From assembly GCA_964291285.2 (NCBI GenBank), contig OZ219787.1, positions 1,120,001-1,184,000 on the forward strand: a stretch of 64,000 nucleotides of DNA. The letters are read 5' to 3'. A program made the position numbers and the translations under genes. Source of the stretch: Alphaproteobacteria bacterium (GTDB lineage Bacteria > Pseudomonadota > Alphaproteobacteria > Bin95). Below the pieces are notes generated by a model, which was given only the letters and a program-made list of their open reading frames with translations, was not told where the DNA came from and ran no database searches. The stretch's first letter is position 1, and each line of letters opens with the position of its first letter. Positions 9,644 through 63,926 of this stretch are shown piece by piece.

Positions 9644-10356
9644 GCCGCCCGCCCGCCATCCTGCTGGTGCGCCCGCAGCTCGGCGGGAATATCGGCATGG
9701 CGGCCCGCGCCATGCTGAATTGCGGGCTGGACGAACTCAGGCTCGTCGCCCCGCGCGACGGCTGGCCGAACCCGGCGGCGCAGGCGGCGGCGGCCGGCGC
9801 GGACGCCGTGATCGGGAATGCGCGCGTCTTCGGCACGGCGGCGGAGGCTGTGGCCGACCTGCAACTCGTGCTGGCGGCGACGGCGCGGCGGCGCGATGTC
9901 GAGAAGCCCGTCCACGGCCCCCGCGAAGCGGCCCGCCTGCTGCGCGACTCCGGCGCGCGGACGGGCGTGCTGTTCGGGCCGGAACGCAGCGGCCTCGACA
10001 ATGACGAACTGGGTCTCGCCGCCGCCATCGTTGAGGCCCCGCTCAACCCGGCGTTCCCGTCGCTCAATCTCGCCCAGGCCGTGTTCCTGGTGGCATGGGA
10101 GTGGCGCATGGCAGGCCCGCCGCCCCAACCGCCGCCGCCGAGCGGGCTTGCCGCAGCGGAAGCCTTCGAGGGCTTCTGGCAGCATCTCGACGGCGCGCTC
10201 GACGCCGCCGGCTACTACCGCGAACCGAAGCTCAAGCCCACCGTCCAGCGCAATCTCCGCGCCGTCTTCGCCCGCGCCGGCCTCACCGACCAGGAGGTCC
10301 GCACGCTCCGCGGCGTCGTTGCGCGGTTGGCTTCGGGAAGTCGAAACAAGGGCTAG
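9640..10356 (+). CDS. trmJ: tRNA/rRNA methyltransferase, TrmJ/LasT family
   Basis: PQLGGNIGMAARAMLNCGL, FGPERSGL, SLNLAQAV, EVRTLRGV. Confidence 0.88.
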   Translation: MSRPPAILLVRPQLGGNIGMAARAMLNCGLDELRLVAPRDGWPNPAAQAAAAGADAVIGNARVFGTAAEAVADLQLVLAATARRRDVEKPVHGPREAARLLRDSGARTGVLFGPERSGLDNDELGLAAAIVEAPLNPAFPSLNLAQAVFLVAWEWRMAGPPPQPPPPSGLAAAEAFEGFWQHLDGALDAAGYYREPKLKPTVQRNLRAVFARAGLTDQEVRTLRGVVARLASGSRNKG

Positions 10357-10369
10357 CGGCTTCCTCCCC

Positions 10370-23559: not shown

Positions 23560-23816
23560 GTCCGCTCCCGCTGTTGCGACTATAGCTGCAACAACGATCC
23601 GGAGAGATACAAGGTGCGCGCGCGCGCACGGGCCGGGGTTGCGGATGTCGCACCAGGTTGCCAACGGCCGGGGCGCCCGGCCCGTACCGAAGGCCATCGG
23701 GATATCCGACCGGGTGGATAAGGGGCGGCGGCCGCCCCCTCGTCATCCCGGACGGGGCGGCGAAGGAGACGCGCGGCGCTTGCATGTTGCGCGGCGCTCG
23801 GCGACAAGGGGAGACG

Positions 23817-26800
23817 ATGGCGGAAGGGACATTCAGGGCGGCGGCCGAGGCGTATTTCGCTGGCCTCGCGCGCGTGCAGGCGTCCGGCGGCGCAACGGCT
23901 GAGCGGTCCTACTATGGGCCGCTCAACAACCTGTTGAATGCGGTCGGCCAGACTCTCAAGCCCAAGGTTTTCTGTATTCAGGAGCTTGCCGAACAAGGCG
24001 CGGGCCATCCCGATTTCGGCCTCTATGCGGCGAAGCAGGTGCGCAAGGGAGAGCCGCGCGAGGGCCAGCTTCCCGAATGCGGCGTCGTCGAGGTGAAACC
24101 CGTCGGGGACGATGCCTGGATGACGGCTGATTCGGATCAGGTCAGCCGCTATCGGGGCCGCTACCGGCTGGTGCTGGCGACCAACTTGCGGGATTTTGTG
24201 CTGGTCGGCGAAGCCGGCGCCGGCCACCCGGCGAAGCTCGAAACCTTCCGGCTGGCGGAGAGCGCGGAGGACTTCCGCTGCAAGCTGGAGACGCCGCGCG
24301 CCTTCGCAAGCGAAACGGGCGTTCGCCTCGGCGAATATCTCGCCCGCGCGCTCTCGCACCGGGCGGCGCTTGCCGAACCGAAGGACCTCGCCCGCCTGCT
24401 CGCTTCCTATGCCCGCGATGGCCTCGCGCGGGTCGAAGCGGCGGGTGATGCACCGTCTCTTGAGACTGTACGGTCGGCGCTGGAGGAAGCGCTCGGCGTG
24501 CGCTTCGAGGGCGAGAAGGGCGCGCGCTTCTTCCATTCCACGCTGGTACAGACGCTCTTCTACGGCGTCTTCTCCGCCTGGGTGCTGTGGGCGCGGCAGC
24601 GGCCCCCGCCGGCGGGCGGTTTCGACTGGCGCACCGCCGTCTGGCACTTGCGCGCGCCGGTGCTGCGGGGGCTGTTCCAGCAATTGTCCGACCCCGGCCG
24701 GTTACAGCCTCTCGGCCTCGTCGAGGTGCTGGACTGGACAGCCGCCGCGCTCGACCGCGTGGACCGGCCGGCCTTCTTCTCCCGTTTCGCCGAGGGCGAG
24801 GCGGTTCCCTATTTCTACGAACCTTTCCTGGAGGCCTTCGACCCCGCGCTCCGCAAGCAGTTGGGTGTCTGGTACACGCCCCCGGAAGTGGTCCGCTACA
24901 TGGTCGCCCGCGTGGACCGGGCGCTGAAGGACGATCTCGGCATCCCGGAAGGTCTGGCGGCGGAGAACGTCTATGTGCTGGACCCCTGCTGCGGCACCGG
25001 GGCCTATCTGGCGGAGGTGCTGCGGCGGATCGCAGCAAACTATCTCGAAGCCGGCAGAGGCGCGCTCACCGGTGTGCTGGTGCGGCGAGCGGCGACGGAG
25101 CGGGTGTTTGGCTTCGAGATTATGCCCGCCCCCTTCGTCGTCGCGCATCTTCAGGTTGGTCTGACCATGCAGGAGTTAGATGCGCCGCTCGCCGACGACG
25201 AGACCGAACGTGCTGGCGTGTTCCTCACCAATGCGCTGACCGGCTGGGAGCCTCGTACGACCAAACCGCTGCCCTTCCCGGAACTGGAGGAGGAGCGCGA
25301 CCGAGCCGAGCGGGTGAAGCGGGACACACCGATCCTCGTTGTTCTCGGCAACCCGCCCTATAACGGTTTCGCGGGCATGGCCGTCGAGGAGGAACGCGAG
25401 CTTTCGGACGCCTACCGGACGACGAAGCGGGTGCGAAAGCCTGAAGGCCAGGGCCTGAATGACCTCTATGTCCGCTTTTTCCGTATGGCGGAACGGCGCA
25501 TTGCAGAAAAGACCGGTCAGGGCGTGGTCTGCTTCATTTCCAACTACTCTTGGCTGGACGGGCTTTCCTTCACCGGCATGAGGGAGCGCTATCTCGAAGC
25601 GTTCGACGCGGTGCGGATCGACTGCCTCAACGGCGATAAATACAAGACCGGCAAGATCACTCCGGACGGCTTGCCCGATCCGAGTATCTTTTCGACCGAA
25701 GGCGATCCCGTCGGCATTCAGGTCGGCACAGCCATCACGACACTGGTGCGCAAGGCAGAGCACAAGCCGAATACCGCCGTCGAATTCCGGCATCTTTGGG
25801 GACAGGAGAAACTGGCGACCCTGATCGCAACGGCGGAGGCGGAGCCGGATGCGCTATACGGGAATGTCGAATCGATCCTGCCGCTGGGCCTTCCCTTCGT
25901 GCATGCTGAGGTGAGGGCCGACTGGTTCCAATGTCCAGCACTGCCCGATCTGTTTCCGTCATACTTTCCAGGCGTTGTTACCAACCGTGATGCTTTTCTC
26001 GTGGATACCGACCTCGACCGCTTGAAGGCAAGAATCGCCGACTATTTCGATGCGAGACTTAGCCACGAAGAGATTGCACAGCGCTATCCGGTTGCGATGA
26101 AGACCACGACGTCCATTCGACTCCGCGCCCGTGAAATTCGTGATTTGCGGGTTATGCGAGGCAAGCCAAGTGCAACCGGCTTCATTCGATATGCATTCAG
26201 GCCATTTGATAACCGATGGCTCTATTGGGAGGCAGAATCGGGCCTACTTGCTCGCCCAAGTCCAGATTACAGACCGCACGTTTTCGAGGAAAATTATTCA
26301 TTGGTTTCGCAACAGAAGCCACGCCGGGATTGGTCTCCACCCCAATTTATCTCGAATATGGGCTGCTATGATTTGATGGATCGCAATGTTTCTTGTTTTC
26401 CCGTTTGGCTTCGCGGCAACGGAATCGAGGGAGATGAAAATGGCACACGCTTCCCAAATTTGTCTCGCACCGCGCACCGCTTTCTCGACCGCTTGGGCCT
26501 CGGTGTCGAAGATCTGTTCCACCATGTCCTTGCCGTCCTGCACGATCCGGCTTACCGTGAAGCCAACGCCGGGGCGCTGCGCATGGGCTGGCCGCGTATC
26601 CCGCTGCCCGGCTGGCCGGATGGCGGAATCAAGGGCGTGGCCGAGGATTTGGCGGGGTCGGCGGCGCGCGGGCGTGACCTAGCGGCGTTGCTCGACCCCG
26701 AAACTCCCGTCCCCGGCGTGACGCAAGCGCCGCTCCGCCCGGAGATCGAGGTCATCGCCGCCGTCACAGCCATAGACGGAGGCTACATTAAAGGAGAAGA

Positions 26801-27182
26801 TTTTGCCGTAACCGCCGGTTGGGGCCATCTCGGGCAGGGCGACGCCGTAATGCCCGGCCAGGGCCGCGCCGTCGAACGCCCCTTCACCCCAGAGGAGCGC
26901 GTCACCATGGGCGATGCGCTGCCCGCGCTCGGCGAGACCACCTTCGACATATACCTCAACGCCAACGCATATTGGCGCAATGTGCCCGCCGCCGTCTGGA
27001 ACTACAAGCTGGGCGGTTATCAGGTCCTCAAGAAATGGCTCTCCTACCGCGAACGGAAGGTTCTCGGCCGCTCCCTGCGGATCGAGGAGGTGCAGGACTT
27101 TGCGGAGACAGCACGGAGAATCGGGGCCATTCTGTGCCTCGTTGACCCTGATGTCGCGACTTCAAAGTCGATCTCCGGATGA
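23817..27182 (+). CDS. Single-polypeptide Type IIG/ISP-like restriction-modification enzyme (nuclease-N6A MTase-TRD, no helicase)
   Basis: N-terminal PDF...VEVK nuclease motif, GVWYTPPEVV, VLDPCCGTG, LGNPPY; LlaBIII-type C-terminus (YAFRPFDNRWLY, YKLGGYQVLKKWLSYR). Confidence 0.85.
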   Translation: MAEGTFRAAAEAYFAGLARVQASGGATAERSYYGPLNNLLNAVGQTLKPKVFCIQELAEQGAGHPDFGLYAAKQVRKGEPREGQLPECGVVEVKPVGDDAWMTADSDQVSRYRGRYRLVLATNLRDFVLVGEAGAGHPAKLETFRLAESAEDFRCKLETPRAFASETGVRLGEYLARALSHRAALAEPKDLARLLASYARDGLARVEAAGDAPSLETVRSALEEALGVRFEGEKGARFFHSTLVQTLFYGVFSAWVLWARQRPPPAGGFDWRTAVWHLRAPVLRGLFQQLSDPGRLQPLGLVEVLDWTAAALDRVDRPAFFSRFAEGEAVPYFYEPFLEAFDPALRKQLGVWYTPPEVVRYMVARVDRALKDDLGIPEGLAAENVYVLDPCCGTGAYLAEVLRRIAANYLEAGRGALTGVLVRRAATERVFGFEIMPAPFVVAHLQVGLTMQELDAPLADDETERAGVFLTNALTGWEPRTTKPLPFPELEEERDRAERVKRDTPILVVLGNPPYNGFAGMAVEEERELSDAYRTTKRVRKPEGQGLNDLYVRFFRMAERRIAEKTGQGVVCFISNYSWLDGLSFTGMRERYLEAFDAVRIDCLNGDKYKTGKITPDGLPDPSIFSTEGDPVGIQVGTAITTLVRKAEHKPNTAVEFRHLWGQEKLATLIATAEAEPDALYGNVESILPLGLPFVHAEVRADWFQCPALPDLFPSYFPGVVTNRDAFLVDTDLDRLKARIADYFDARLSHEEIAQRYPVAMKTTTSIRLRAREIRDLRVMRGKPSATGFIRYAFRPFDNRWLYWEAESGLLARPSPDYRPHVFEENYSLVSQQKPRRDWSPPQFISNMGCYDLMDRNVSCFPVWLRGNGIEGDENGTRFPNLSRTAHRFLDRLGLGVEDLFHHVLAVLHDPAYREANAGALRMGWPRIPLPGWPDGGIKGVAEDLAGSAARGRDLAALLDPETPVPGVTQAPLRPEIEVIAAVTAIDGGYIKGEDFAVTAGWGHLGQGDAVMPGQGRAVERPFTPEERVTMGDALPALGETTFDIYLNANAYWRNVPAAVWNYKLGGYQVLKKWLSYRERKVLGRSLRIEEVQDFAETARRIGAILCLVDPDVATSKSISG

Positions 27183-27205: not shown

Positions 27206-28276
27206 ATGTCACTTATGGCTGAAAACAATACACCGAATGATCCATCAGTCTTTCTGAGAGAAATGGTGGAAGCTATGGATAGGCAGAAAAGACAAAAAAT
27301 AGAACGTTGTATTGCTCACTTGAGCACATACGAAATTCCTACTCCCAGCCATATTTGTCGGACTATAAATTCCTTGATAGGGCATGAAAGACAAAATGTG
27401 TTAAGTTATCATCCGTTTTGGAAAGAGCAAGCTTTACGTCAAGGATTGGCGTCTCTTATTCATGCTTCTCATCAAGCATCTATGGACATTTGTCGTCACG
27501 ATGCTGCGTTGGGAGAATTGGCTCGTTCGGAAAACTTCCAAGACGGCGTGGACCTTTACGTTAGTTTCCCTTCACAAAAGGATACGGTTGCTTACTGCGC
27601 ACTGGCGATGGGGGTCAAAAGCACGCTTAAAGAGATTCAAGGTCTGCGTACAGACATTTGTGATGAGTTAGGTAAGTTAGTTGATAACTTGTTCGATGAG
27701 GATATTTCGCAATTCATTCGAGAGTTAAGAAATAATCTGCTTCATGGCCGAATAGTCATTCCGCAATGGGAGATTTCGTATAGCAATGAAAAAGGAAGAA
27801 ATGCTGGTTCTATGGTGTACAATATAGAAAATCTATTGCGTTCCGGTCATTGGAACGAGGAGGCCAAAAGATACATTCTGTCTTCCCAAGATGAGAAGAT
27901 CAATTTGTCTTCAGTAATTCGCGACCACTTTAAAGTGATGAACGATTTGTACCGCTCTGTCAATAGTATGTTTTTCAAAAATATTACTCTTGTGGAGAAA
28001 GATTTCCATGACATAGAAGATACTCACAAGAAACAGGTGCGGACCCAATGGGCTAGGATATTGGTTGAACAAGCTGCGGTCGGAAAGAATCCTTACGATC
28101 ACCTCCATAGTTTCTTTGATCCTGAAACCGTGCGCGAGATATTACGTCTGCCTCCACATAGTAGGGAACAGGTGGATTTCATCATTTCATTGAAGTCTGC
28201 TGAAATTGACTGGGACGATAGACTGCGGAATACGATGTACAAAATATTCGGAGTTGCGGATTACACAGATACATAA
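27206..28276 (+). CDS. AT-rich hypothetical protein with a HEPN-like RxxxxH motif
   Basis: 356-aa ORF with much lower GC than its flanks; helical segment FIRELRNNLLHGR. Confidence 0.65.
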   Translation: MSLMAENNTPNDPSVFLREMVEAMDRQKRQKIERCIAHLSTYEIPTPSHICRTINSLIGHERQNVLSYHPFWKEQALRQGLASLIHASHQASMDICRHDAALGELARSENFQDGVDLYVSFPSQKDTVAYCALAMGVKSTLKEIQGLRTDICDELGKLVDNLFDEDISQFIRELRNNLLHGRIVIPQWEISYSNEKGRNAGSMVYNIENLLRSGHWNEEAKRYILSSQDEKINLSSVIRDHFKVMNDLYRSVNSMFFKNITLVEKDFHDIEDTHKKQVRTQWARILVEQAAVGKNPYDHLHSFFDPETVREILRLPPHSREQVDFIISLKSAEIDWDDRLRNTMYKIFGVADYTDT

Positions 28277-39953: not shown

Positions 39954-40931
39954 ATGACACAGCGCGTATTCATCGCTAACTTTGGGCGTGGAAATTATGA
40001 ATGGCCAACTTGCTTGAGAGATTCCACTATTGCTACAATGAACGATGAACATGTTCAGGAATATTGGGCTAATGGAGATCGCGAAAATTATATACAATAT
40101 TGCATCAATAATTTGAAAAGTTCTGGTGGAATTTCACCTACAAGACCGGTTGCGTCTCGTTGGTTTAATCTAATGACAATTGTCTCTGAGTCAGAAGGTG
40201 ATATCTGGATTCACCGTGCTAAAGATGAACTGTGGTGGACTATCTCTTTACACCAACAACCAACCATTACGTTAAAATTAGATCCTAACCCTCTCGAGGG
40301 AAGCGTCAATGTGTATATTTGTCACAAGCCCTGCAAACCGTGGTCAAACAAAAACAAAAATAACTCTCCCCTAATGTGGAAATCTTTACGCCCAAAGGCT
40401 AAGGACTTTATGTTCACCGAGGGCTCATTGCAGAGACTTCAACCAGATAACGCTCAATATGCGCTTGCCCTAATTGAGGGAATAGATTTATCAAAATGGC
40501 ATAATCGTCCCGATTGGAAGAAAAGGCAAATTAATACGCAAAGAACGCCTGTAAATTATCTTAACCCTAGACAAAAATCTATTGTTGATATGGCTATGAC
40601 TGCAGAAGGCACAGCACGGAGTTCACGAGGACAAAAAATTGAAACCCGAGTCAAGAACAAGGAAATTAAGTTTACTCGACAACAGCTTGAAAAATATCTA
40701 GATGCTTTATTACAAGCGCAGGATGGACTATGTGCAATTTCGTCACTGCCACTGCAATATCAAGGTAGTCACGATAATGCAGAATTCCTGTGTTCACTGG
40801 ATAGGATTGACAGTGATGGGCACTACGAACAGGGAAATTTGCAAATTGTATGTAGATTCATAAATCGTTGGAAGCGTGACCAGAATGATGAAGAATTCCG
40901 AAACCTTTTGGACATTGTTCGAGGCATATAG
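39954..40931 (+). CDS. AT-rich protein with a C-terminal HNH/EndoVII-like nuclease motif
   Basis: QDGLCAIS...SLDRIDSDGHYEQGNLQIVCRFINRWK; strongly lower GC than its neighbours. Confidence 0.7.
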   Translation: MTQRVFIANFGRGNYEWPTCLRDSTIATMNDEHVQEYWANGDRENYIQYCINNLKSSGGISPTRPVASRWFNLMTIVSESEGDIWIHRAKDELWWTISLHQQPTITLKLDPNPLEGSVNVYICHKPCKPWSNKNKNNSPLMWKSLRPKAKDFMFTEGSLQRLQPDNAQYALALIEGIDLSKWHNRPDWKKRQINTQRTPVNYLNPRQKSIVDMAMTAEGTARSSRGQKIETRVKNKEIKFTRQQLEKYLDALLQAQDGLCAISSLPLQYQGSHDNAEFLCSLDRIDSDGHYEQGNLQIVCRFINRWKRDQNDEEFRNLLDIVRGI

Positions 40932-40946: not shown

Positions 40947-41783
40947 GGTCGTGTACCCATAAGGGGTTTCTTCTTCAGCGAAGCTGTGATTCAAGCTCCC
41001 AACTTCAGGGAGCGAGGACATGGGCCGGTACGATCTGACGGACTTCGAATGGCGGGTGATCAAGCCGTTGCTGCCGAACAAGACCCGTGGGGTGCCGCGG
41101 GTTGACGACCGGCGGGTGTTGAACGGCATTCTGTGGGTGCTTCGCGCGGGGGCGCCGTGGCGAGACCTGCCGGAGCACTACGGGCCTTATACGACCTGCT
41201 ACAACCGGTTCAACCGCTGGCGCAAGAAGGGCATCTGGGATCAGTTGATGGATGCGGTGGTGGAGGCTCACGACGGCAATGTGCAGATGATCGACAGTTC
41301 GAGCGTCCGGGTTCACCAGCATGCGGCGGGGTCAAAAAAGGGGGTCCGGATCGTTGCATGGGCCGTTCCCGTGGCGGACTGACCACGAAGATCCACGCCG
41401 TGTCGGACGTGAGCGGCCTGCCGGTCCGCTATGACCTCAGCCCCGGCCAGGCGCACGACACCACGGCCGCCGGTGCCATGCTGGCGACCCTGCCGCCCGA
41501 CAGTTTCCTCGTCGCCGACAAGGCCTATGACGCCAAATGGATCCGTGACCTGATCGAGCAACACGATGCCGTCCCGATCATCCCCGACCGCGAAGGCGCG
41601 AAGACCAGGCACGCTTTCTCCAAACCCTTGTATAAATTGCGAAACCGGATCGAACGCGCCTTCAACAAACTCAAGCAGTTCCGCCGCATCGCCACCCGAT
41701 ACGAAAAGCTCGCGGCCAACTTCCTCGCCATGATCAAGATCGCTACTGTAAGGCTCTGGCTACGCGCTTATGAGTCCACGGCC
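40947..41783 (+). mobile_element. IS5-family (IS427-like) element, two-ORF transposase
   Basis: TIR GGTCGTGTACCCATAAG / GGCCGTGGACTCATAAG; flanking GTTA duplication; orfA 41020-41382 (GAPWRDLP, IDSSSVRVHQ); orfB (GGLTTKIH, ADKAYD, RNRIER, RRIATRYEK); slippery A6G5 at about 41334-41344. Confidence 0.92.
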
Positions 41784-41876
41784 GTTAGTGGCTTATCGTT
41801 ACAAGCGATGCAGACTGTGGCCTCGCCGGGATTTTCGGGTTAAACAGGCTGGGATTTCTGGGTTGATCAGTTTGTC

Positions 41877-47595: not shown

Positions 47596-48777
<1,182 letters not shown>

Positions 48778-54156: not shown

Positions 54157-54245
54157 GCGGTCAACCTGAGCCGAAAAAGGCCGTTTGTGGTGGTCGACCT
54201 GAGCCGAAAAGGGCCGTTTGTGGCGGTCAACCTGAGCCGAAAAGG
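54157..54245 (+). repeat. 33-bp tandem repeat, about 2.7 copies
   Basis: Unit GCGGTCAACCTGAGCCGAAAAAGGCCGTTTGTG; the last partial unit runs into the SD of the ORF at 54256. Confidence 0.9.
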
Positions 54246-54255
54246 AGAAGAGACG

Positions 54256-54693
54256 ATGACGAACGAAGTGGCGGACGGAACGGCGGGCGCGCCGGCGGCG
54301 GTCCTGCCGGTGCCGAGACAGGGCCGGGCGGTGAACGAGCAACTGCGGGGCCTGGTGCTGGCGGCCGTGCTGCATGAGGGCCTGACCGGCGGCGCGGCAG
54401 CGCGGCGGTTCGGGCTGGGCCGGGCGACGGTCAACCGGTGGGTGCGGCAGTTTCGCGAGACCGGCCAGGTGCGGGCCGGCGGGCAGGGGGGCAGCACCGC
54501 GCGGCTGGAGCGTTCGCGGGGGCTGATCCTCCGCATCCTGGTCGCGCGGCCGGACATTTCCATGTACGGATTGTGCGACATGCTCGCCGCCGAGGGGGTG
54601 AAAGCCAATCCGTTCACGCTGCAGCGCTTCCTGAAACGCCACGGCCTGGACCGCAAGAGCCGCCGCGCCCGGCGGCGGGGGAGCGGGGGCTAA
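54256..54693 (+). CDS. IS630-type HTH-only protein
   Basis: QLRGLVLAAV..AAARRFGL..TVNRWVRQFRETG..RPDISMYGL..QRFLKRHGLDRK; paralog of 47010-47453; no DDE domain. Confidence 0.75.
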   Translation: MTNEVADGTAGAPAAVLPVPRQGRAVNEQLRGLVLAAVLHEGLTGGAAARRFGLGRATVNRWVRQFRETGQVRAGGQGGSTARLERSRGLILRILVARPDISMYGLCDMLAAEGVKANPFTLQRFLKRHGLDRKSRRARRRGSGG

Positions 54694-54981: not shown

Positions 54982-55144
54982 GGCGCTCCCTCCGTGGCGG
55001 CTGCCGTCCCGAAGCTCTCTCGCCACTTGGAACGACGAAATTTGCTTCCGCCAAAATTTCAGCTTGCAGCTATCTCACGTCCAATATTAGCATGTGTATA
55101 AATCGGTTTTGTAATGCCTATCATCGGAGGAGGTTCGGGGTACA

Positions 55145-56245
55145 GTGGATGGAGGGGGAAATCCGCTGGCCGGCATCCGGGAGGAGCTTGCCGACGAATA
55201 TGCGCAGCCGACAGCGATGCCACAGCGCAGCGCACGCGCTCCGACCGCAGGGTGTCTATTCAGCGGCATGGGGGGATTTGCCTCCGGGCTGGTCGCCTCC
55301 GGCTTCACCGTCTCGTGGGCTTCCGACAACAATGCCGACGCGTGCGCCGCGTTCTCTCATCGCCATCCGGGCGTCCGCATCCTTCAATGTGATGTACAAG
55401 ATTTGCGAGCCGACGCTGACGGCCTTGCCCCAGTAGACGTCTTGGCCGCTGGCTTTCCGTGCCAAAGCTTCTCTCAGGCTGGCGGACGAAAGGGGTTTGA
55501 CGACGACCGAGGTAAAGCCTTTTTCGAAATACCCCGTCTACTCAGCGAGCTTGCGCCACAACATCGACCGAAGTTTTTGATTCTAGAGAATGTAGAGTAT
55601 ATCCTCTACGGCAATGATGGGCGCTGGTTTGATACCATCCAGCGCGAACTCCGCCGGGTCGGCTATTGGTTTCGCCGTCAATCCTGCTGGCAAGTCAATG
55701 TCAAGGATGCAACGGCTATTCCGCAGGACCGCTCTCGCGTCTTTATGGTTGCGGCTTCTCGCGAACACTATAGTCACAATCCGTTCAAACCTCCAATCAT
55801 TCAGGTAAATAGAGCAGCGACAGATGTAAACATATTCTTGGATCGTTCAAAAAGAGCGAATGACGATGATTATTTGCCAAAAGATAACAAATATTGTAAA
55901 ATGATAGAAACTAAAATACTGGAAGGAGAATCTTCTGAAAATTTATATCAATTGAGGCGATCTTATGTTCGAGAAAAAAGAGGGAAACAGTGCCCTACAT
56001 TAACGGCGAATATGGGAATTGGTGGCCATAATGTGCCATTCATCAAGGACTCGTGGGGTATTCGTCGCCTTACTGTAGAAGAAATTGCCCGGCTTCAAGG
56101 TTTTGATACTTCGGTTTCACTCTTTCCAGACTTAACGTCGCAGGCACAATATAGGTTGTTAGGAAATGCTGTCTGCCCAGAGCTTGCCCGTCTAGCAGCC
56201 AAAGAATGCTTTCCACACTTGACACTGGATGAGGAAATATCGTGA
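55145..56245 (+). CDS. dcm: DNA (cytosine-5) methyltransferase
   Basis: LFSGMGG, GFPCQSFS, ENV, PQDRSR, RLQGF, LGNAV; start uncertain (55145 or 55217). Confidence 0.93.
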   Translation: MDGGGNPLAGIREELADEYAQPTAMPQRSARAPTAGCLFSGMGGFASGLVASGFTVSWASDNNADACAAFSHRHPGVRILQCDVQDLRADADGLAPVDVLAAGFPCQSFSQAGGRKGFDDDRGKAFFEIPRLLSELAPQHRPKFLILENVEYILYGNDGRWFDTIQRELRRVGYWFRRQSCWQVNVKDATAIPQDRSRVFMVAASREHYSHNPFKPPIIQVNRAATDVNIFLDRSKRANDDDYLPKDNKYCKMIETKILEGESSENLYQLRRSYVREKRGKQCPTLTANMGIGGHNVPFIKDSWGIRRLTVEEIARLQGFDTSVSLFPDLTSQAQYRLLGNAVCPELARLAAKECFPHLTLDEEIS

Positions 56246-58185
56246 CAAGAATCGGATGGAAATTTCCCCCCACGGGTGGCGGAGTGGAAGGTGGTTACAA
56301 TCATGCCGGCATGACTCACTTCCAAGGTGCTAGATATCCAAGTCTGGCACGGGAAGTGATCCAAAATTCCCTTGATGCACGCAAATCCGAAGCCCGCCCC
56401 GTTCATGTGACTTTCGAGATTCAACAGCTTCTACGGGATCAGATGCCCGGCTATGAGGAGTTTCTGGATATAATTAATCGTTGTATTGAAGCATCTGACA
56501 ATGACGAAAGGGCACGATCTGAATTGGAATTAGAGAAGAAAGTAGTGCAGCGTAAAAAAATCATTTTTCTACGTATAGTGGATAGAGAAACAACAGGACT
56601 TAGTGGTAGTAAGTGGGCAGCGCTGTTGAAGAAGGAGGGATTGCCGGATAAAGAAAGTGCTACTGCGGGTGGCAGCTTCGGTATAGGAAAGAACGCTCCT
56701 TTTGCGATGTCACCATTGAGGACGGTGTATTACTGGTCTCGGTTTGAAGCGGGCTCGGAAGTGTTGGAGAAATTTCAGGGTAAGGCTATACTGATTTCGC
56801 ATCTAGATGATGATAAGGAGGATACACAGAGTATCGGGTTCTTTGGCAGTAAGGACAAATGCTTGGAACTTTCAGATGCACAAATCCCAGAAGCAATTCG
56901 TATGATAGAAACTCCGGACAGGGGAATAGGAACTTCTCTTTGGATACCGGGATTCGATGGGTCGGCAATTTGGAGAGATAAGATTGCCGGGAGTGTAGTG
57001 GAAAATTTCTTTTGTGCTGTTGACGAAGCGAAACTCGAGGTCTTGGTTGATTCAGATTCTTATACGACGACTGATCTTCTTTCTATTGAAGCAGCGAGCT
57101 TGGGAGATTGGTTTGAACATCTTGTTAACAATGAAGCCCATTCCGAGGACAATCTTCGTTTGAGGCGGGCGAGGGCATTTTGGGAAGTTATGAAGGCGCC
57201 GATGGTTATAAAAGAGAAAGAGGATAAGGATTTGGGCCATTGCAAGTTATGGATAACGGTGAGTGATAAATACGAAGATGTTGGACGTGTTGGATTAATT
57301 CGATTGAATGGGATGTTGATAACCGATCAGCAGGAGGGGTTACGGCAGTTTCGACGCACGATGCCGTTCGCGGCAGTATGTCGATTCGAGTCCGACAAGG
57401 GTAACGAGTTGCTTCGTGGGATGGAGAATCCGAGGCACGATCAGTTTCAGCCGGAATTTTTGCCGACGGAGGATCGCAGCCGCGGACGGGCAGCGCTCAC
57501 GCGGATTACGAGATGGATTCGGGAGGAGATCAACAAGGTAGCGATGCCAGAGGTAAGTGGTGAAGCGATTGCTATTACGGAACTCGCCAGGCTGCTCCCA
57601 GACCTCGAACCAGATGACGGTCTTGGCGCGGTGCCCAGCGAGGACGGAGAGCGACCGCTCGAAGGCGCGCCCCTTATTCAGCTAAAGCCAATTCGGCCGC
57701 CGCGTCAAAGGCAGGAGGTGCCGGACGACGGCGTGGTCGAGGGAGGCCAGGAGGAAGGCGACGACGAGAACGGCGGGACGGTAGGCGGCGGAGGGGGGAG
57801 TGACAATGGTGACGGTGGCGGAGAAACGGGGAGTGGGACAGAGACGCTTGTTTTCGGTCCTGTCCAAATTGAGAACAGTAGATGTTTGCCGTCGCCCGAG
57901 GATAAGAAACGGTTGCAAGTCCTGTTTACCCCTAAATCCCGCGGGACCGGCGCGTCTCTGTCGCTTGTAGAGGCGGGTGATTCGGATTTTATCCAAAGAA
58001 ATGATCTCCAAGTGGTAAAGCCGAACGGGGAAAGAGTAAAACTGTCGGAATTTCACCTCGAATTCATAGCCAATGAACGAGTGAGTATTTTGATCGAGGG
58101 CGACGAACCTGTTGCACAGCGTGCATGGCGGATCATGGTGAAGCAACCCAAGGAGCATAAGCCGGCCGCAGAGGGACAGAAATAA
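56242..58185 (+). CDS. GHKL (MutL/MORC-like) ATPase with acidic Gly-rich linker
   Basis: N-box REVIQNSLDA, DRETTGL, GGSFGIGKNA, GTSLWI. Confidence 0.75.
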   Translation: MTRIGWKFPPTGGGVEGGYNHAGMTHFQGARYPSLAREVIQNSLDARKSEARPVHVTFEIQQLLRDQMPGYEEFLDIINRCIEASDNDERARSELELEKKVVQRKKIIFLRIVDRETTGLSGSKWAALLKKEGLPDKESATAGGSFGIGKNAPFAMSPLRTVYYWSRFEAGSEVLEKFQGKAILISHLDDDKEDTQSIGFFGSKDKCLELSDAQIPEAIRMIETPDRGIGTSLWIPGFDGSAIWRDKIAGSVVENFFCAVDEAKLEVLVDSDSYTTTDLLSIEAASLGDWFEHLVNNEAHSEDNLRLRRARAFWEVMKAPMVIKEKEDKDLGHCKLWITVSDKYEDVGRVGLIRLNGMLITDQQEGLRQFRRTMPFAAVCRFESDKGNELLRGMENPRHDQFQPEFLPTEDRSRGRAALTRITRWIREEINKVAMPEVSGEAIAITELARLLPDLEPDDGLGAVPSEDGERPLEGAPLIQLKPIRPPRQRQEVPDDGVVEGGQEEGDDENGGTVGGGGGSDNGDGGGETGSGTETLVFGPVQIENSRCLPSPEDKKRLQVLFTPKSRGTGASLSLVEAGDSDFIQRNDLQVVKPNGERVKLSEFHLEFIANERVSILIEGDEPVAQRAWRIMVKQPKEHKPAAEGQK

Positions 58186-59036
58186 TGAGATACGATCCGA
58201 ACAAGATGTGGCAATACCCGGTTCTGAGACCGGAAAGCGACGATTATCCAACTTCCGAATTTCAAGCGACCATTGATCCTCAAAGAATGGAAAATTCCAC
58301 AGCGCTTCGAGTGACAGTGGATTTCGCTCTCGGTGATGCAAATTTGTCCAAGCTCATCGAAGATCGATTCGCGCAATACATAATACTCACTCGATGCTCT
58401 AAAACATATTTTCGACAAATGAATTCAACTAATTCTGGGCGATTGATATTCGATATTGCTGGTGACAGGATTTACGGTGAAATTGAAATTTCTCCTTACA
58501 TAATGGCAGTAGATGAAATATCGGAATTTCGCGCCAATAGCTGGCATGAAGATTATGATTTGCTGCCAACACCGCACCTTGAACCTGGTTCCGTTCTCGC
58601 TCTTGACACTCCAAGGCACTACTATATTGACAATGCAGAGGAGCAATCGGTTAATTCGATTATTGAAGTGCAACCGGGCAATCCTGAAAATGGCAGATGG
58701 GATTGCGATTTCGAGGGGGAGAGAGTCAAAATCACTATGTCGAATGAAGATTATGAAAAATTTCGTCGTGCTCGTCAAGAAAATTTAAGCGAGGAAGAAA
58801 AGGCATAGATATTGAATTCGATTTACTTTCCGGCTGTTTACCACATATTGGTCACAACGGACTCGGAAAAAAGTGTTTATGTGGAAAGACGCTGGTATCG
58901 CGCACTCGATAAACGTCTTGAGGAGATAAACGGAGGAACTTTGGGCCAAGACGGTAGAAATAGACTGGAAGATGCGCAACGCTTGTTGGAAAACCCCTTT
59001 TCTCGATTACCTTTTATAGCTGCGGATGCGCTATAA
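58185..59036 (+). pseudogene. Unknown protein with an in-frame TAG at 58806-58808
   Basis: ORFs 58185-58808 and 58812-59036 share a frame; the joined ORF is TAATG-coupled to both neighbours. Confidence 0.75.
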
Positions 59037-59797
59037 TGAAGATCGTGCAATACTATACCGATCAGGCCGTGGAGAGCTTGCGAGACGATATTGAAACGAA
59101 TCTCGACTGGTACTATACGGGAAAGGGGGTGCAACCCGCTCCTAAGAATCTTGAACGACCCGTTCGAGAAAGTCATTTTAGGATGGAGAATATTATGGAA
59201 GTTCTTGAAGTTTCTGAAGAAAATCCTTCTGAATTGGATAGTGGAAATGCGATTAGGTTATACGCAGCGCTTCCTCAAATGACCCCGAAAGTCGCCTCCA
59301 TGGAAAAGCTCTGGACACGACTGTCGCACGGTGAGGGCGCCGAGTACATTAGCAGGCGCTGGTTGGTAACACGCCCTGAAGACAACGAAAAGGCGGCGAA
59401 GGCTGTGCGAAATCATTTTTTCGCTAAGGGAAATCGAGGTGTTATTCGAGATAATGGTTTGTCGAGGCTCTGGTGGCTTGGTCATATAGCGCATCGGACA
59501 GACCGGGAGAATCCTGACCTGTTTTTGGATATTGTTTTGCATAGGCAAGATGTTCGTTCCGCACTGGTAGAACGCCCTTCTGTTGCAATGAATGAGGCGG
59601 TCCTGTGTGGGATATATTCCGTTATGAAAGAGAAATGGGCCGCATGTGGTAGGAAGGCTAAACTTTTTCAGCGCGATGTTTTTCGCGGCTGGATGATTGG
59701 GTTGAACCGGCGCGGGGGCATTGTGCTGTTAGACGCGCTGCCTGAAAAAGTGCTCAATAAGGTGTTGTGGGAGGAAGCAGAGGCAGCGGGTGCATGA
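59036..59797 (+). CDS. DUF6339-like protein
   Basis: DSGNAIRLY..MTP..AS.EKLW..LSH...YI.RRW...NGLSRLWW pattern (family recalled, not searched). Confidence 0.65.
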   Translation: MKIVQYYTDQAVESLRDDIETNLDWYYTGKGVQPAPKNLERPVRESHFRMENIMEVLEVSEENPSELDSGNAIRLYAALPQMTPKVASMEKLWTRLSHGEGAEYISRRWLVTRPEDNEKAAKAVRNHFFAKGNRGVIRDNGLSRLWWLGHIAHRTDRENPDLFLDIVLHRQDVRSALVERPSVAMNEAVLCGIYSVMKEKWAACGRKAKLFQRDVFRGWMIGLNRRGGIVLLDALPEKVLNKVLWEEAEAAGA

Positions 59798-60074
59798 CGG
59801 ATAACCTGTCACCCGAAGCGCGGGCGCGCTGCATGTCGCATATTCGGTCGGAGGGAATGCGGCCGGAGCGGGCGGTTCGGTCGTTGGTCCATCGAATGGG
59901 TTTTCGATTTCGTCTGCACCGGCGCGATTTGCCGGGCAAGCCCGATTTGGTTTTGCCGAGGCACAAGGCGGTGATCTTCGTTCACGGCTGTTTTTGGCAT
60001 TGGCATCCAGATGTAGAGTGCCCTATCGCCGGGTTGCCAAAATCGAATCTTGGCTACTGGCTGCCGAAGCTAAC

Positions 60075-62086
60075 CCGACTTCCGCAACTCGGCTTGAGAA
60101 TCGACTGATTTGACGGTTTTCCGGCGCGAGAAGTGTCGGATTTCGGTGCAGTACCTCTCGGGACCGGCTTGTAGTGCCGACCTACCCCCTTGATCGGGCT
60201 GGCGAAGATCCGGACGCTGCGCTGATGTTCGTGCGCTGCAAGAGACGCTTCAAGGACGGCAAGGAGCACCGCTACTGGAGCGTTGTGGAGAACGTCCGGG
60301 TCCACGGCGGTCGGGTTGTTCAGCGTCAGGTGCTCTATCTCGGGGAGATCAACGACAGCCAGCGAGCGGCGTGGTGCCGCTCGATCGAGGTGGTGGAGGG
60401 CAAGTCGCGATCACGGCAGATGGCGCTGTTTCCCGAGGACCGGGAGGCGCCGGCGCTGACTTGCGAAGTGGTGAAGATCGACCTCTCGCAGGTGGCGCTT
60501 CACGACCCGCGCCAGTGGGGGGCGTGCTGGCTGGCGCTGTCCTTGTGGGACCGCCTGGACCTGGACCGCTTCTGGGAAGAGCGGCTGCCGGCGAGCCGGC
60601 AAGGCACGCGGTGGCTGGACATCCTGAAGATCCAGGTCTGCTACCGGCTGATCGACCCGGGCAGCGAGTGGCGCCTTCACCGTCACTGGTATGAGCACAG
60701 CGCGCTTCGCGATCTTCTGGGTGGCGAGCGGGCGATCGCCGACGACACACTCTATCGCTGTCTCGACAAGCTGCTGGCGCACAAGCAGGGCTTCTTCTCG
60801 TTTCTGCGCGACCGCTGGGCGACGCTGTTCGAGGCGCGCTTCGACGTGCTGCTCTACGACCTGACCTCGACCTACTTCGAGAGCGATCCGCCGTTCGATG
60901 ACAAGCGCCGCTTCGGCTACAGCCGGGACAAGCGGCCCGACTGCGTGCAGGTGGTGATCGCCCTGATCGTTACGCCGCAGGGCTTTCCGCTGGCCTATGA
61001 GGTGATGCCGGGCAACACCTCCGACGACACCACGCTGGCGGCGTTCCTCAAGAAGATCGAGGATCAGTATGGCCGCTCCGAGCGGGTGTGGATCATGGAC
61101 CGCGGCATCCCCACCGAGGAGACGCTGGCCGCGATGCGCGAGGGCGAGGCGCCGGTGCGCTACCTGGTGGGCACGCCCAAGGGCCGGCTGACGCGGCTCG
61201 AGAAGGTGTTCCTGGGCCTGCCCTGGCAGGAGGTGCGCCAGTCCGTGACTGTCAAGCTTCTGGTCGAGGATGGCGAGCTCTACGTCCTGGTGCGCAGCGA
61301 GGGGCGGCAGGTGAAGGAACGCGGCATGCGCCGGCGCCGGCTGAAGAGGCTGTGGCGTCGATTGGCCGAGTTGCAAGGGCAGTCGAACAGCCGGGATCAG
61401 TTGTTGCTCAAGCTCGGCGCCGCCAGGAAGGAGGCCGGCCGGGCCTGGAGCCTGGTCGACATCACCGTGCCCGGGACCGACAGCGAACTCGCCGCCAACG
61501 GCTTCTCATTCCGCCTGCAGCGCGACCGGCTGCGCCAGGTCCGCCGCCGCGAGGGCCGTTACCTGCTGCGATCCAACATGGTCGCCGAAGACCCCGCCAC
61601 GCTGTGGCATCTGTACATGCAGCTCGTCGAGATCGAGCAGGCGTTCAAGGAACTCAAGCACGACCTCGCGATCCGCCCCATCTTCCATCAGCGCCAAGAG
61701 CGCATCGAGGCGCATATCTTCGTCTCGTTCATCGCCTACTGCCTGCTGGTGACCCTGAAGAACCTCGCCCGGCCGCGCGCCCCGGGCCTCACCCCACGCG
61801 CCATCCTTGAGGCCTTCGCCACCATCCAGATGGTGGACGTCCATCTGCCAACCACCGACGGCCGGCACCTCGTCCTGCCGCGCCACACCCGGCCGAACAA
61901 GGAGCACGAGCTACTGCTGCAACAGCTCGGCATGACCTGGCCGCAGCAACCCGCACCCCGGATCTCCGCCTGACGGCACACGGCGCCGCCTCTCCGTTCG
62001 CCGCCTTGTAGTGCCGACCCTCGGGGAGACGATCAAGGCTATTCAATGAGTTAGCATCCTCATGACCCCCGAGTTGCGGAAGTCGG
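60075..62086 (+). mobile_element. IS1634-family element
   Basis: Perfect 18-bp TIR CCGACTTCCGCAACTCGG; 6-bp TSD GCTAAC (60069-74 / 62087-92); subterminal CTTGTAGTGCCGACC at both ends. Confidence 0.95.
60225..61973 (+). CDS. IS1634 transposase
   Basis: YDLTSTYFE, GYSRDKRPD, MDRG, IEQAFKELK, RPIFH. Confidence 0.93.
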   Translation: MFVRCKRRFKDGKEHRYWSVVENVRVHGGRVVQRQVLYLGEINDSQRAAWCRSIEVVEGKSRSRQMALFPEDREAPALTCEVVKIDLSQVALHDPRQWGACWLALSLWDRLDLDRFWEERLPASRQGTRWLDILKIQVCYRLIDPGSEWRLHRHWYEHSALRDLLGGERAIADDTLYRCLDKLLAHKQGFFSFLRDRWATLFEARFDVLLYDLTSTYFESDPPFDDKRRFGYSRDKRPDCVQVVIALIVTPQGFPLAYEVMPGNTSDDTTLAAFLKKIEDQYGRSERVWIMDRGIPTEETLAAMREGEAPVRYLVGTPKGRLTRLEKVFLGLPWQEVRQSVTVKLLVEDGELYVLVRSEGRQVKERGMRRRRLKRLWRRLAELQGQSNSRDQLLLKLGAARKEAGRAWSLVDITVPGTDSELAANGFSFRLQRDRLRQVRRREGRYLLRSNMVAEDPATLWHLYMQLVEIEQAFKELKHDLAIRPIFHQRQERIEAHIFVSFIAYCLLVTLKNLARPRAPGLTPRAILEAFATIQMVDVHLPTTDGRHLVLPRHTRPNKEHELLLQQLGMTWPQQPAPRISA

Positions 62087-62309
62087 GCTAACTCGAACAA
62101 GAGAGCGCGACGGCATGAACCAACGAGCGCTCGAAGCAATGGGCTGGCGGGTGCTCACAATCTGGGAATGCTCTTTGCGGCAGCCCGACGCAGTAACCAA
62201 TGAAATCAGCTACTTCTTGAGTTCTGGATAGTCTGGTCGACCTCACCCCCACGCATCCTTCGAGGCCGTTGCCGCGCCCCGCCCGGCAGCCGTGACACGG
62301 CCGGCGGGC

Positions 62310-63926
62310 TCACCCCCGCGCATCCTCCAGCGCCATCGCCGCGCCTTTTTCGGCGATCATGATGGTGGGGCTGTTGGTGTTGCCGGAGGTGATCGCGGGC
62401 ATGACCGAGGCGTCGATCACGCGGAGGTTCTCCAGCCCGTGGACCTTCAGCCGGTCGGTCACCACGGCCCCGGGGTCTCCGCCCATGCGGCAGGTGCCGA
62501 CGGGGTGGAAGATCGTCGTGCCGATGGCGCCCGCGGCCCCGGCCAGCTCCGCGTCCGCCTCGAGCGCCGCGCCGGGGAGGAACTCCTCGGGCTCGTAGGG
62601 CGCCAGCGAGGGCGCGGCGGCGATGCGGCGCGTGAGGCGGATCGCGGCCACCGCCACCTGCCGGTCGGCCTCGGTCGAGAGGTAGTTGGGCGCGATCGCC
62701 GGCGGCGCCTCCGGGTCCGGCGATTTCAGGCCGACCGTCCCCCGGCTCTCCGGCCGGAGGTTGCACACCGACGCCGTGAAGGCGGGGAAGCGGTGCAGCG
62801 GCTCGCCGAAGCGGTCCAGCGACAGCGGCTGCACATGGTATTGCAGGTTCGCGGTCTCGCGCGCGGGGTCGGACTTCGCGAAGGCGCCCAACTGGCTCGG
62901 CGCCATGGTGAGCGGCCCGCGCCGGAAGAGCGCATATTCGAGCCCCATGCCGAGCTTGCCCCAGAGGCTGTTCGCGCGCCGGTTCAGGGTCTCGACATGC
63001 GCCACCCGGTAGATCAGGCGAAGCTGGAGATGGTCCTGGAGGTTGGCGCCGACGCCGGCGAGCTCGTGATGGACCGCGACGCCCTTCTCCCGCAGCAGCG
63101 CGCCCGGCCCGACGCCCGAGACCTGCAGGAGATGCGGCGAGCCGACGGCGCCCGCCGCCAGGATGAGCTCGCCCGCGACTTCGGCGCGCGCCGGCCGGCC
63201 CTTCAGGCGGAACTCCAGGCCCGCCGCGCGGGAGCCGTCGAACAGGATGCGCCGCGCCTGGGCGTGGGTCAGCACGGTCAGGTTGGGGCGGTCCTGCGCG
63301 GGCTTGAGGAAGGCGTCGGCGGCGGTCCAGCGCACGCCGCGGCGCTGGTTGACCATGAACTTGCCCGTGCCCTCATTGTCGCCGTCGTTGAAGTCCGGCG
63401 TCGGACGCAGGCCGATATCGGCGCAGGCGCGCTGGAAGGCGTCGAGGATCTCCCAGCCGGTGCGCGGCTCCTCCACCCGCCATTCGCCGTCCGCGCCGTG
63501 AAAGGCGTCGGCCGGGCCGAAATGGCGCTCCGACTTCCGGAACCAGGGCAGCACGTCGTCCCAGCCCCAGCCGCGGTTGCCGCTCTGCGCCCAGCCGTCA
63601 TAGTCGCGCGCCTGGCCGCGCATGTAGATCATGCCGTTGATCGCCGAGCAGCCGCCCAGCACCCGCCCGCGCGGATAGGCGAGGGCGCGCCCGTTCAGCC
63701 CCGCCTCGGCCTCGGTGGTGAAGCACCAGTCGGTGCGCGGGTTGTTCTGGGTGTAGAGATAGCCGACGGGGATTTTGATCCAGATGTAGTTGTCCCGGCC
63801 GCCCGCCTCCAGCAGCAGCACCCGGTTGCGGGGGTCCTCCGAGAGCCGGTTCGCCAGCACGCACCCCGCCGAGCCCGCGCCGACGATCACATAGTCGAAG
63901 CTGCCGACGCTGGCGGGCCCGGTCAT
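62310..63926 (-). CDS. GMC oxidoreductase (choline dehydrogenase-like)
   Basis: [56 protein letters not shown]. Confidence 0.93.
   Translation of the reverse strand: MTGPASVGSFDYVIVGAGSAGCVLANRLSEDPRNRVLLLEAGGRDNYIWIKIPVGYLYTQNNPRTDWCFTTEAEAGLNGRALAYPRGRVLGGCSAINGMIYMRGQARDYDGWAQSGNRGWGWDDVLPWFRKSERHFGPADAFHGADGEWRVEEPRTGWEILDAFQRACADIGLRPTPDFNDGDNEGTGKFMVNQRRGVRWTAADAFLKPAQDRPNLTVLTHAQARRILFDGSRAAGLEFRLKGRPARAEVAGELILAAGAVGSPHLLQVSGVGPGALLREKGVAVHHELAGVGANLQDHLQLRLIYRVAHVETLNRRANSLWGKLGMGLEYALFRRGPLTMAPSQLGAFAKSDPARETANLQYHVQPLSLDRFGEPLHRFPAFTASVCNLRPESRGTVGLKSPDPEAPPAIAPNYLSTEADRQVAVAAIRLTRRIAAAPSLAPYEPEEFLPGAALEADAELAGAAGAIGTTIFHPVGTCRMGGDPGAVVTDRLKVHGLENLRVIDASVMPAITSGNTNSPTIMIAEKGAAMALEDARG

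Follow-up and report, generated by a model that had tools for sequence, protein, structure and literature searches.

A five-gene cassette on a low-GC island

The subject of this analysis is a cluster of five genes in a 64,000-nucleotide stretch of an Alphaproteobacteria bacterium (lineage Bin95; assembly GCA_964291285.2, contig OZ219787.1, positions 1,120,001 to 1,184,000 of the forward strand). This whole stretch is hereafter called the window, and window coordinates are counted from its first letter. An earlier note, made from the sequence, had read the cluster as a candidate restriction or anti-phage operon. As presented in Table 1, the cluster carries, on the + strand and in this order, a C5 cytosine methyltransferase gene (dcm), three genes that we call A, B and C, the last of which encodes a DUF6339 protein, and a very-short-patch repair endonuclease gene (vsr). 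Using calls of open reading frames (ORFs) and direct sequence reading, we recovered the five ORFs and the four overlapping junctions at the positions claimed: GTGA at 56242-56245 between dcm and A, TAATG at 58183-58187 between A and B and at 59034-59038 between B and C, and ATGA at 59794-59797 between C and vsr. The identities proposed for Dcm, DUF6339 and Vsr were all borne out by Pfam matches, and those of Dcm and Vsr by NCBIfam matches as well. In addition, the three middle genes matched the A, B and C components of PDC-M33 in PADLOC, contiguous, in the same order and co-oriented on the + strand.

The cassette lies on DNA of foreign origin. GC content across 55.0-60.0 kb was 0.44-0.60, compared to approximately 0.67-0.74 in the flanks (about 0.72 on the left side before the drop), and it recovered only within a host-like insertion sequence (IS) and beyond 62.2 kb. 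Likewise, GC at third codon positions (GC3) was 0.38-0.50 in the island genes and 0.80-0.95 in host-like ORFs, so that the lower-GC block described earlier was found again by both measures. The flanks hold housekeeping genes, namely a GCS2 ligase, DUF3179, an MFS transporter, a luciferase-like oxygenase and a GMC oxidoreductase. A search for direct repeats flanking the island gave only a 37-nt repeat at its right edge (62242-62278 and 62309-62345, 81% identical), the second copy of which forms the 3' terminus of the GMC oxidoreductase gene. This repeat may be the scar of an insertion event.

In the window copy, dcm, A and C look whole and two genes are broken. The first is B: its length of about 283 codons, as given in the earlier note, holds when the gene is read through, but it is interrupted at codon 208 by an in-frame TAG that the note did not mention. 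The two pieces lie in one frame (58185-58808 and 58812-59036) and both matched PDC-M33B (4.9e-39 at profile positions 5-198 and 5.9e-07 at 208-274 of 289). Since the TAG codon aligns with a tyrosine in 17 of 35 orthologues, and TAG is the stop of 3 of the 17 host-like ORFs, we consider it a genuine stop here. The second broken gene is vsr, split by an IS1634-family element. Its 5' piece matched PF03852 (2.6e-26) and TIGR00632 (1.5e-30), the latter at profile positions 1-93 of 119, as expected from a truncated gene, and its 3' piece stops at 62231, which accounts for the end coordinate given in the earlier note. The element is bounded by 25-nt inverted repeats (92% complementary, 60068-60092 and 62069-62093), with GCTAAC on either side (60069-60074 and 62087-62092). 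Its transposase matched NF033559 (9.5e-91, 305 bits for a cut-off of 100) and has a host-like GC3 of 0.89. The assignment to the IS1634 family thus has both a transposase equivalog and terminal inverted repeats behind it; no near match to the element was found in the plasmid collection. With B reduced to a pseudogene and vsr interrupted by a host-like IS, the cassette has decayed since its acquisition, and restriction is dead in the window copy because of these two lesions. Dcm may still be methylating.

Table 1. Features of the cassette and its surroundings in the window.
Feature	Position	Strand	Basis
Low-GC foreign island with the cassette	55040..62240, edges approximate		GC, GC3, flank genes
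dcm, C5 cytosine DNA methyltransferase, 366 aa, apparently intact	55145..56245	+	PF00145, TIGR00675, PADLOC MTase_II
Gene A, 647 aa, full length, probable GHKL-type ATPase	56242..58185	+	PADLOC PDC-M33A; conserved motifs
Gene B, 283 codons, pseudogene here (pieces of 207 aa and 74 aa)	58185..59036	+	PADLOC PDC-M33B
In-frame TAG, codon 208 of B	58806..58808	+	Sequence reading; read-through with X
Gene C, DUF6339 protein, 253 aa, full length	59036..59797	+	PF19866, PADLOC PDC-M33C
vsr 5' part, very-short-patch repair endonuclease	59794..60074	+	PF03852, TIGR00632
IS1634-family insertion inside vsr	60075..62086, approximate	+	Inverted repeats, transposase 60174-61973
vsr 3' part, TAG stop 62229-62231	62087..62231	+	Translation of 62091-62231 corresponds to the Vsr C-terminal region

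The methyltransferase and the three middle proteins

Dcm matched PF00145 (1.2e-51, profile positions 6-322 of 324), TIGR00675 (4.2e-53) and the PADLOC profile MTase_II (4.4e-66), and its nearest solved structures are M.HaeIII (7e-21) and M.HhaI. The PCQ and ENV motifs are visible in its translation. Across 28 loci of the main clade of related cassettes (defined below), conservation in 15-residue windows was 0.40-0.47 at residues 181-210 of the reference row, a variable stretch, and 0.69-0.90 at residues 211-270, which, judged by motif positions, presumably form the later part of the target-recognition region. This conservation suggests one fixed specificity for the enzyme.

Protein A consists of an ATPase-like N-terminus (approximately residues 1-260), a middle region, a linker (approximately 456-545) and a C-terminal domain of about 100 aa. 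The acidic, glycine-rich linker reported earlier for this 647-aa protein is present, with 22 Gly, 9 Asp and 12 Glu among residues 456-545. Over residues 1-593, A matched PDC-M33A (5.7e-98, profile positions 1-580 of 627). In GHKL ATPases, motif I (N-box) carries the catalytic Glu and a Mg-binding Asn, motif II (G1 box) reads DxGxG, motif III (G2 box) GxxGxG and motif IV GT. On these definitions, the residues shared by at least 97% of 59 homologues, drawn from all clades, run in the order expected for motifs I-IV: E38, N42 and D45 agree with motif I, D114, T117 and G119 could represent a G1 box in which only one Gly of DxGxG is kept, and G144, G147 and G149 of the G2 box and G230 of motif IV are present, followed by T231 in 88-97% of homologues. 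The same degree of conservation was observed for R354, E395 and H399 in the middle region and for G579 in the C-terminal domain.

We compared A with known GHKL proteins using hhalign. Against E. coli MutL, the A profile paired E38 and N42 with MutL E29 and N33 at a probability of 2.5%. Against a MutL N-terminal profile of 145 sequences, collected by a search of representatives, the ATPase region of A aligned at the N-box with a probability of 41% (P = 2.8e-4), whereas the control profiles of B and C gave P = 0.14 and P = 0.042. When the N-box was removed, the strand before D114 of A aligned with the strand before the DNG of MutL (P = 0.045), and in the comparison with E. coli HtpG the two G2 boxes aligned at a probability of 0.3%. 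The middle region of A did not match the MutL transducer (P = 0.23), and global mode gave no match between A and the MutL profile. No match to A was found in Pfam, NCBIfam or PHROGs. None of the 31 members of one alignment of A homologues (A1) matched a GHKL family of Pfam at E ≤ 5; in another (A4), one of 35 homologues matched HATPase_c_3 (E = 0.15) and the other 34 gave no signal of that family even at E ≤ 5, the Pfam output for both alignments being noise. Searches of PDB chains with the A sequence and its profiles returned no GHKL chain at E ≤ 10, only low-complexity noise from the Gly/acid linker. The GHKL ATPase announced in the earlier note is thus backed by invariant motifs and by weak but well-placed matches to MutL and HtpG, and not by a Pfam, NCBIfam or PDB-sequence match; from these motifs we regard A as a probable GHKL-type ATPase. 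The family is large, with at least 921 clusters at E ≤ 1e-3 (word-indexed search, 8000 candidates scored), and spans at least 10 phyla, plasmids and a temperate phage.

B is encoded as a single ORF of approximately 272-297 aa in most related loci. It had no match in Pfam, NCBIfam or PHROGs, its searches of PDB chains, with a 36-row profile among them, met low-complexity noise only, and 35 orthologues (alignment A5) searched against Pfam at E ≤ 5 gave noise only. Residues P12, V13, L14, D20, G135, W237, Q265 and P271 are kept in at least 97% of 74 homologues. C matched PF19866 over profile positions 2-173 of 175 (1.2e-38, 133 bits for a gathering cut-off of 23.2) and PDC-M33C (PDLC04586, 1.3e-38). 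Of the C residues shared by at least 97% of 70 homologues (Y26, A87, W93, Y104, W146, W147 and L232), most are aromatic. Neither PHROGs nor, with a 28-row profile, the PDB sequences yielded a match to C, and a search for longer or fused forms gave one 541-aa protein with PF19866 only. Among known nuclease motifs, none resembles the conserved-residue patterns of B and C. We rejected a HEPN-like Rx4-6H reading of C, since its Arg is replaced by Lys in the window and by Cys or Gly in further rows of the alignment. If one of these proteins cuts DNA, our best guess is the invariant R354/E395/H399 region of A, or else B; neither has a fold match.

Related loci and the proposed function

We then analyzed 76 loci with an A alignment, taken from species-representative genomes in which they had been found by two peptide patterns of A; genes were called with iterated hidden Markov models (HMMs) of the window proteins over all ORFs. 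B and C were both present in 71 loci, and the remaining five are remnants or contig ends. A C5 methylase was found in 68 loci, directly upstream and co-oriented in 58, and vsr in 49, directly downstream of C in 43; an HMM built from the vsr 3' piece of the window recovered vsr ORFs in 48 loci. The middle genes do co-occur with dcm and vsr, and the five-gene order is kept colinearly in 40 of the 76 loci. In Herbaspirillum sp. RV1423 (L057) all five genes are whole. As the same order recurs in so many loci of many phyla, the arrangement is, judged on gene order, far beyond chance. With start codons chosen by script, dcm overlaps A at 31 of 34 scorable junctions and A overlaps B at 43 of 49. For B and C, 34 of 60 junctions overlap and a further 26 are within 20 nt, and for C and vsr the corresponding numbers are 14 and 22 of 37. 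No conserved neighbour was observed beyond the five genes: the largest flank family occurs in 6 of the 76 loci, and the recurrent flank families that we inspected are housekeeping ones, e.g., UvrA and a molybdopterin oxidoreductase.

The genes also diverge together. Among the 36 loci in which dcm, A, B and C are all whole, the correlations of pairwise identities were 0.97 for A-B and 0.96 for both A-C and B-C, and those of Dcm were 0.85 with A, 0.82 with B and 0.86 with C. We found no pair among these loci in which the methylase had been swapped next to similar A, B and C. In a quick maximum-likelihood tree of A, the window falls inside a main clade of 40 rows (99 in the Shimodaira-Hasegawa-like approximate likelihood ratio test, SH-aLRT), nearest to a Vicinamibacterales metagenome-assembled genome (MAG), and the tree mixes phyla, with 19 label changes for a minimum of 9. 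The closest relatives are 73% (P0004) and 64% (P0005) identical. Mza has Z1 and AIPR genes. A PADLOC scan and the survey of conserved neighbours confirmed that the unit holds no helicase, Z1 or AIPR gene. Overall, dcm-A-B-C-vsr is inherited as one translationally packed unit in the clade of the window, with no further restriction gene in it.

The position of A, B and C in the endonuclease slot, the nearly constant adjacency of a methylase and the tracking of the C5 type by vsr make a multi-subunit, ATP-dependent, restriction-modification (R-M)-like system the most economical explanation. We give an even chance to the reading that the cassette is a horizontally acquired, self-contained R-M-like defence unit, now inactivated in the window, and a Dcm/Vsr-coupled form of PDC-M33. 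In such a system, Dcm would write 5-methylcytosine (5mC) at a fixed motif on host DNA, and Vsr would repair the T:G mismatches that arise from deamination of 5mC. A, B and C would fill the slot between dcm and vsr that is normally held by a type II restriction enzyme, acting together as an ATP-driven restriction component against DNA without the mark. A would be the dimerising GHKL clamp of MutL/MORC/Hsp90 type, presumably hydrolysing ATP, and B and C its partners in a complex. Like the earlier note, we infer an effector complex gated by 5mC.

Decay of the cassettes is frequent. At least one gene is damaged (split A, B, C or dcm) in 28 of the 65 scorable loci, and insertions of 1-2 kb interrupt genes in several MAG loci, e.g., L001, L009, L023 and L052, although some of these splits may be assembly artefacts. 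Such decay would be accounted for if the cassette were mainly a selfish addiction module, in which A-B-C would kill cells after segregation once Dcm methylation is diluted, with little anti-phage value. The damaged gene in the 28 loci, and likewise in the window, and the spread of these foreign cassettes across phyla agree with this. This reading shares its molecular mechanism with the R-M-like one, so that the two are inseparable by sequence, but A-B-C is found in defence-rich plasmid regions, and we hold an addiction module to be quite improbable.

Several observations weigh against the R-M-like reading. In three loci (L030, L040 and L043) A, B and C look whole but dcm is split, a combination that should kill the host under simple R-M, barring another methylase, a hidden defect or an assembly error. 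Loci with a whole dcm and damaged A-B-C outnumber the reverse by 20 to 3, which is not significant given the target size (binomial p = 0.17), and for 2 of the 20 divergence rather than damage is possible. The specificity region of Dcm has not diversified, unlike in typical R-M systems. The GHKL assignment of A lacks confirmation by a library model or a fold, its hhalign probability being the 41% given above, and searches with Pfam, NCBIfam, PHROGs, PADLOC and profiles against PDB sequences revealed no nuclease fold or family in any of the three middle proteins. The search for loci by two peptide patterns of A biases the sample toward the clade of the window. Finally, on the Arthrobacter and Priestia plasmids (L084 and L085) the module adjoins a complete type II R-M system with its own endonuclease, and in two Deinococcus loci (L070 and L073) no methylase was found within 8 kb upstream and approximately 2-6 kb downstream.

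The last two points come from a divergent part of the family, much of it on mobile elements. A tblastn search with A returned 26 plasmid records and 2 phage records, the plasmids including 9 from Ligilactobacillus, 6 from Lactococcus, 2 from Priestia, one each from Deinococcus, Arthrobacter and Planococcus, and two from haloarchaea. A and B are annotated there as hypothetical and C as a DUF6339 family protein. A conserved protein of approximately 75 aa is encoded before A in five of the six plasmid and phage loci compared (L083:4751-4984, L084:4768-4995, L085:4725-4955, L079:5744-5974 and L080:1907-2131) and just before A in six divergent genome loci (L062, L068, L071, L072, L075 and L076); it is absent from the window and from L001-L056. 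Pfam gave no significant match for its copies in L083 and L085, the former having a CLZ match below the cut-off (E = 0.0015), and none for that in L079.

The surroundings of A-B-C vary in these records. In Planococcus the order is vsr, dcm, small gene, A, B, C, and in D. actinosclerus a dcm-vsr pair lies 2 kb upstream of the module. The Arthrobacter plasmid carries a complete dcm-vsr-type II endonuclease operon, then the small gene with A-B-C, then Shedu, and the Priestia plasmid has a MutH/Sau3AI-family endonuclease and a dcm on the opposite strand. In L. salivarius (L078) A-B-C adjoins HsdS/HsdM, with HsdS and an N6 methylase directly upstream of the module. On Lactococcus pS127 an AlwI endonuclease stands on one side of the module and AbiGI/GII on the other, and C is immediately followed by a type I HsdM fragment. 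In a temperate C. innocuum phage the integrase is followed by the small gene and A-B-C, and an HTH-C5 methylase is encoded 1 kb further downstream. Overall, the plasmid surroundings of A-B-C hold abortive infection (Abi), Shedu and R-M genes. The Deinococcus loci L070 and L073 have, upstream of A at the usual place of dcm (6994-7731), an HNH-domain ORF with a weak PADLOC match to a type IV methyl-directed enzyme (7.8e-05), on a contig that encodes a RepA-type replication initiator. In L062 (Paenibacillus sepulcri) we observed two A-B-C copies (1-3513 and 7977-11579) with a 570-aa C5 methylase between them.

From these settings, A-B-C could be an autonomous defence module that is blind to the mark of the neighbouring methylase, acting by abortive infection or as a sensor of modified or foreign DNA and merely travelling with methylase or R-M genes; in the main clade it would then have been fixed inside a dcm-vsr pair without functional dependence. 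The PADLOC candidate is defined by the three genes only, and PDC candidates were found embedded in other systems (bioRxiv 10.1101/2024.01.29.577857). The module adjoins complete type II systems in the Arthrobacter and Priestia plasmids and type I genes in Lactococcus and L. salivarius, the two Deinococcus loci have no methylase in the examined sequence, the three loci with a split dcm keep whole-looking A, B and C, and in the divergent clade the gene before A is the small fourth gene, not dcm. Against such independence stand the C5 methylase directly upstream in 58 of 76 loci and its overlap with A at nearly all scorable junctions, the co-divergence of Dcm with A, B and C (r 0.82-0.86) and the lack of any other restriction gene between dcm and vsr. 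In addition, a Bacilli MAG locus (L076) swaps in a D12-class N6-adenine (N6A) methylase at the cassette edge, directly after C, and L060 has the order small gene (6700-6963), dcm, A, B, C, with dcm placed between the small gene and A. We therefore see an autonomous module as possible but clearly less probable than the R-M-like cassette.

L076 has no vsr, which is thus lost where the methylase type changes. This bears on another alternative, in which the operon would be a methylation and repair module and A a MutL-like matchmaker that, together with B and C, helps Vsr in the very-short-patch repair of damage from 5mC deamination. The alignment of the A N-box with that of MutL and the tight linkage of C and vsr (36 of 37 junctions overlapping or within 20 nt) are compatible with it, as is a functional interaction of MutL and Vsr in E. 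coli, which we know from the title of a reference in PMC2292703. However, vsr is missing in 23 of the 71 loci with B and C and in 22 of the 68 with a C5 methylase, and in L076 A-B-C accompanies an N6A methylase, where there is no deamination problem. In addition, the module is carried by plasmids with Abi, Shedu and R-M genes around it and by the accessory region of a phage, and a foreign cassette mixed across phyla is typical defence cargo, not core repair. A MutL-like repair role for A with Vsr is thus the less likely one, and a repair module as a whole seems to us highly improbable.

A bolder version of the R-M-like reading, which we consider unlikely, would make A-B-C a new class of portable restriction module, built on a divergent GHKL clamp of MORC/Hsp90 type and without a canonical nuclease, which would read the mark of the methyltransferase coupled to it and stop unmarked DNA. 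In the main clade the methyltransferase would be of C5 type, accompanied by Vsr; elsewhere it could be N6A or type I M/S. As means we propose either a cryptic site (R354/E395/H399 in A) or ATP-driven entrapment without cleavage. If true, this would be an epigenetic immunity system of a rank comparable to BREX or DISARM.

Relation to known systems and other features of the window

The earlier note did not recognise the cassette as a named system. We likewise found no experimental description, and full-text literature searches for 'PDC-M33' and 'DUF6339' gave no paper, but the middle genes are catalogued in PADLOC as candidate PDC-M33 A/B/C. The PDC-M33 profiles cover A, B and C of the window almost from end to end, and gene order and orientation agree. 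The A and C profiles match whole genes and B is split by its TAG instead of being an intact single gene. The PDC-M33 definition has three genes, whereas the clade of the window adds a coupled Dcm and Vsr. The PDC systems are 145 untested 'guilt-by-embedding' candidates (bioRxiv 10.1101/2024.01.29.577857). We found no description in print of the five-gene Dcm/Vsr form, the co-divergence or the small fourth gene, although the supplements of the PADLOC preprint may list gene contents.

Compared to classical type II dcm-REase-vsr systems, the cassette likewise has a C5 methylase and Vsr flanking a restriction function (the Arthrobacter plasmid has the order dcm-vsr-type II endonuclease). Where those have a single endonuclease gene, it has three genes of 3.55 kb in total, one of them ATPase-like. 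With regard to R-M systems generally, a cognate methyltransferase is present in the operon and no recognisable endonuclease domain is present in A, B or C. BsuMI is an McrBC-like R-M cassette akin to LlaJI. LlaJI itself (PMC1459862) is a precedent for a multi-gene NTPase restriction cassette with methyltransferases that attacks unmethylated DNA, found on lactococcal plasmids; it is built on a McrB-type AAA+ GTPase, and no sequence relation to our cassette was detected. CglI/NgoAVII is also an R-M system in which restriction is split between an ATPase and another protein, with a methyltransferase alongside. Its ATPase is a DEAD-Z1 helicase-like motor and its R-protein has defined recognition and nuclease domains, while the cassette has a GHKL-like ATPase and no recognised domain in B or C.

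R-M operons that would combine GHKL ATPases with cytosine methylases and Vsr were predicted in 2008 (Iyer, Abhiman and Aravind, PMC2292703), a prediction with which the R-M-like reading of the cassette is in line, and a 2026 preprint still calls the GHKL R-M role proposed (bioRxiv 10.64898/2026.09.30.754977). These MORC/paraMORC operons resemble the cassette in their GHKL-type ATPase, cytosine methylase, Vsr-family endonuclease, mobility and proposed R-M role (PMC2292703). They usually have a superfamily 2 (SF2) helicase and a nuclease of restriction endonuclease (RE) fold, HNH or HKD type, neither of which was recognised here, and their ATPases match HATPase_c_3, for which 34 of 35 A homologues gave no signal at E ≤ 5. 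Defence systems with GHKL/GHL ATPases, some with methylases, also include Mza, Tiamat and GHKL-Shedu (VcSduA/paraMORC3) (PMC12137116; bioRxiv 10.64898/2026.09.30.754977). Tiamat and VcSduA have a fused PD-(D/E)xK nuclease and the cassette has none. No Mza-named PADLOC match was obtained for the seven window proteins searched (the cassette, with B as two pieces, and the IS transposase). At PADLOC E ≤ 0.01, A matched PDC-M33A only, in a collection that we take to include models of Mza, Tiamat and Shedu.

The three core proteins are without assigned fold or function despite their large and widespread family. Should the Dcm-coupled form prove to restrict unmethylated DNA, the R-M systems with GHKL ATPases that were predicted in 2008 would have their first tested case, and the form would be a restriction enzyme without a recognisable nuclease. 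The copy in the window matters less, since it is a decayed remnant, and chiefly illustrates the gain and subsequent loss of such cassettes; the A-B-C family is a worthwhile experimental target.

Elsewhere in the window we observed a second R-M system, a 1174-aa type IIG restriction enzyme-methyltransferase fusion at 23658-27179 (+) (PADLOC REase_MTase_IIG, 7.6e-90), directly followed by a low-GC ORF at 27206-28276 (+) without Pfam or PADLOC match (GC 0.44 at 27-28 kb). Low GC was also found at 40-41 kb (0.41), where an ORF without family match lies beside a DDE transposase (PF01609, 8e-22), at 39954-40931 (+) and 41133-41843 (+). With this transposase, an IS110-family transposase at 47746-48777 (+) (PF01548, PF02371) and the IS1634-family element in vsr, the window is rich in insertion sequences. 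An ORF immediately to the left of the island, at 54187-54693 (+), carries HTH_23/HTH_28 domains and may be a remnant of a transposase or regulator. Finally, a stretch of intermediate GC (0.58-0.61) was observed at 3000-7000.

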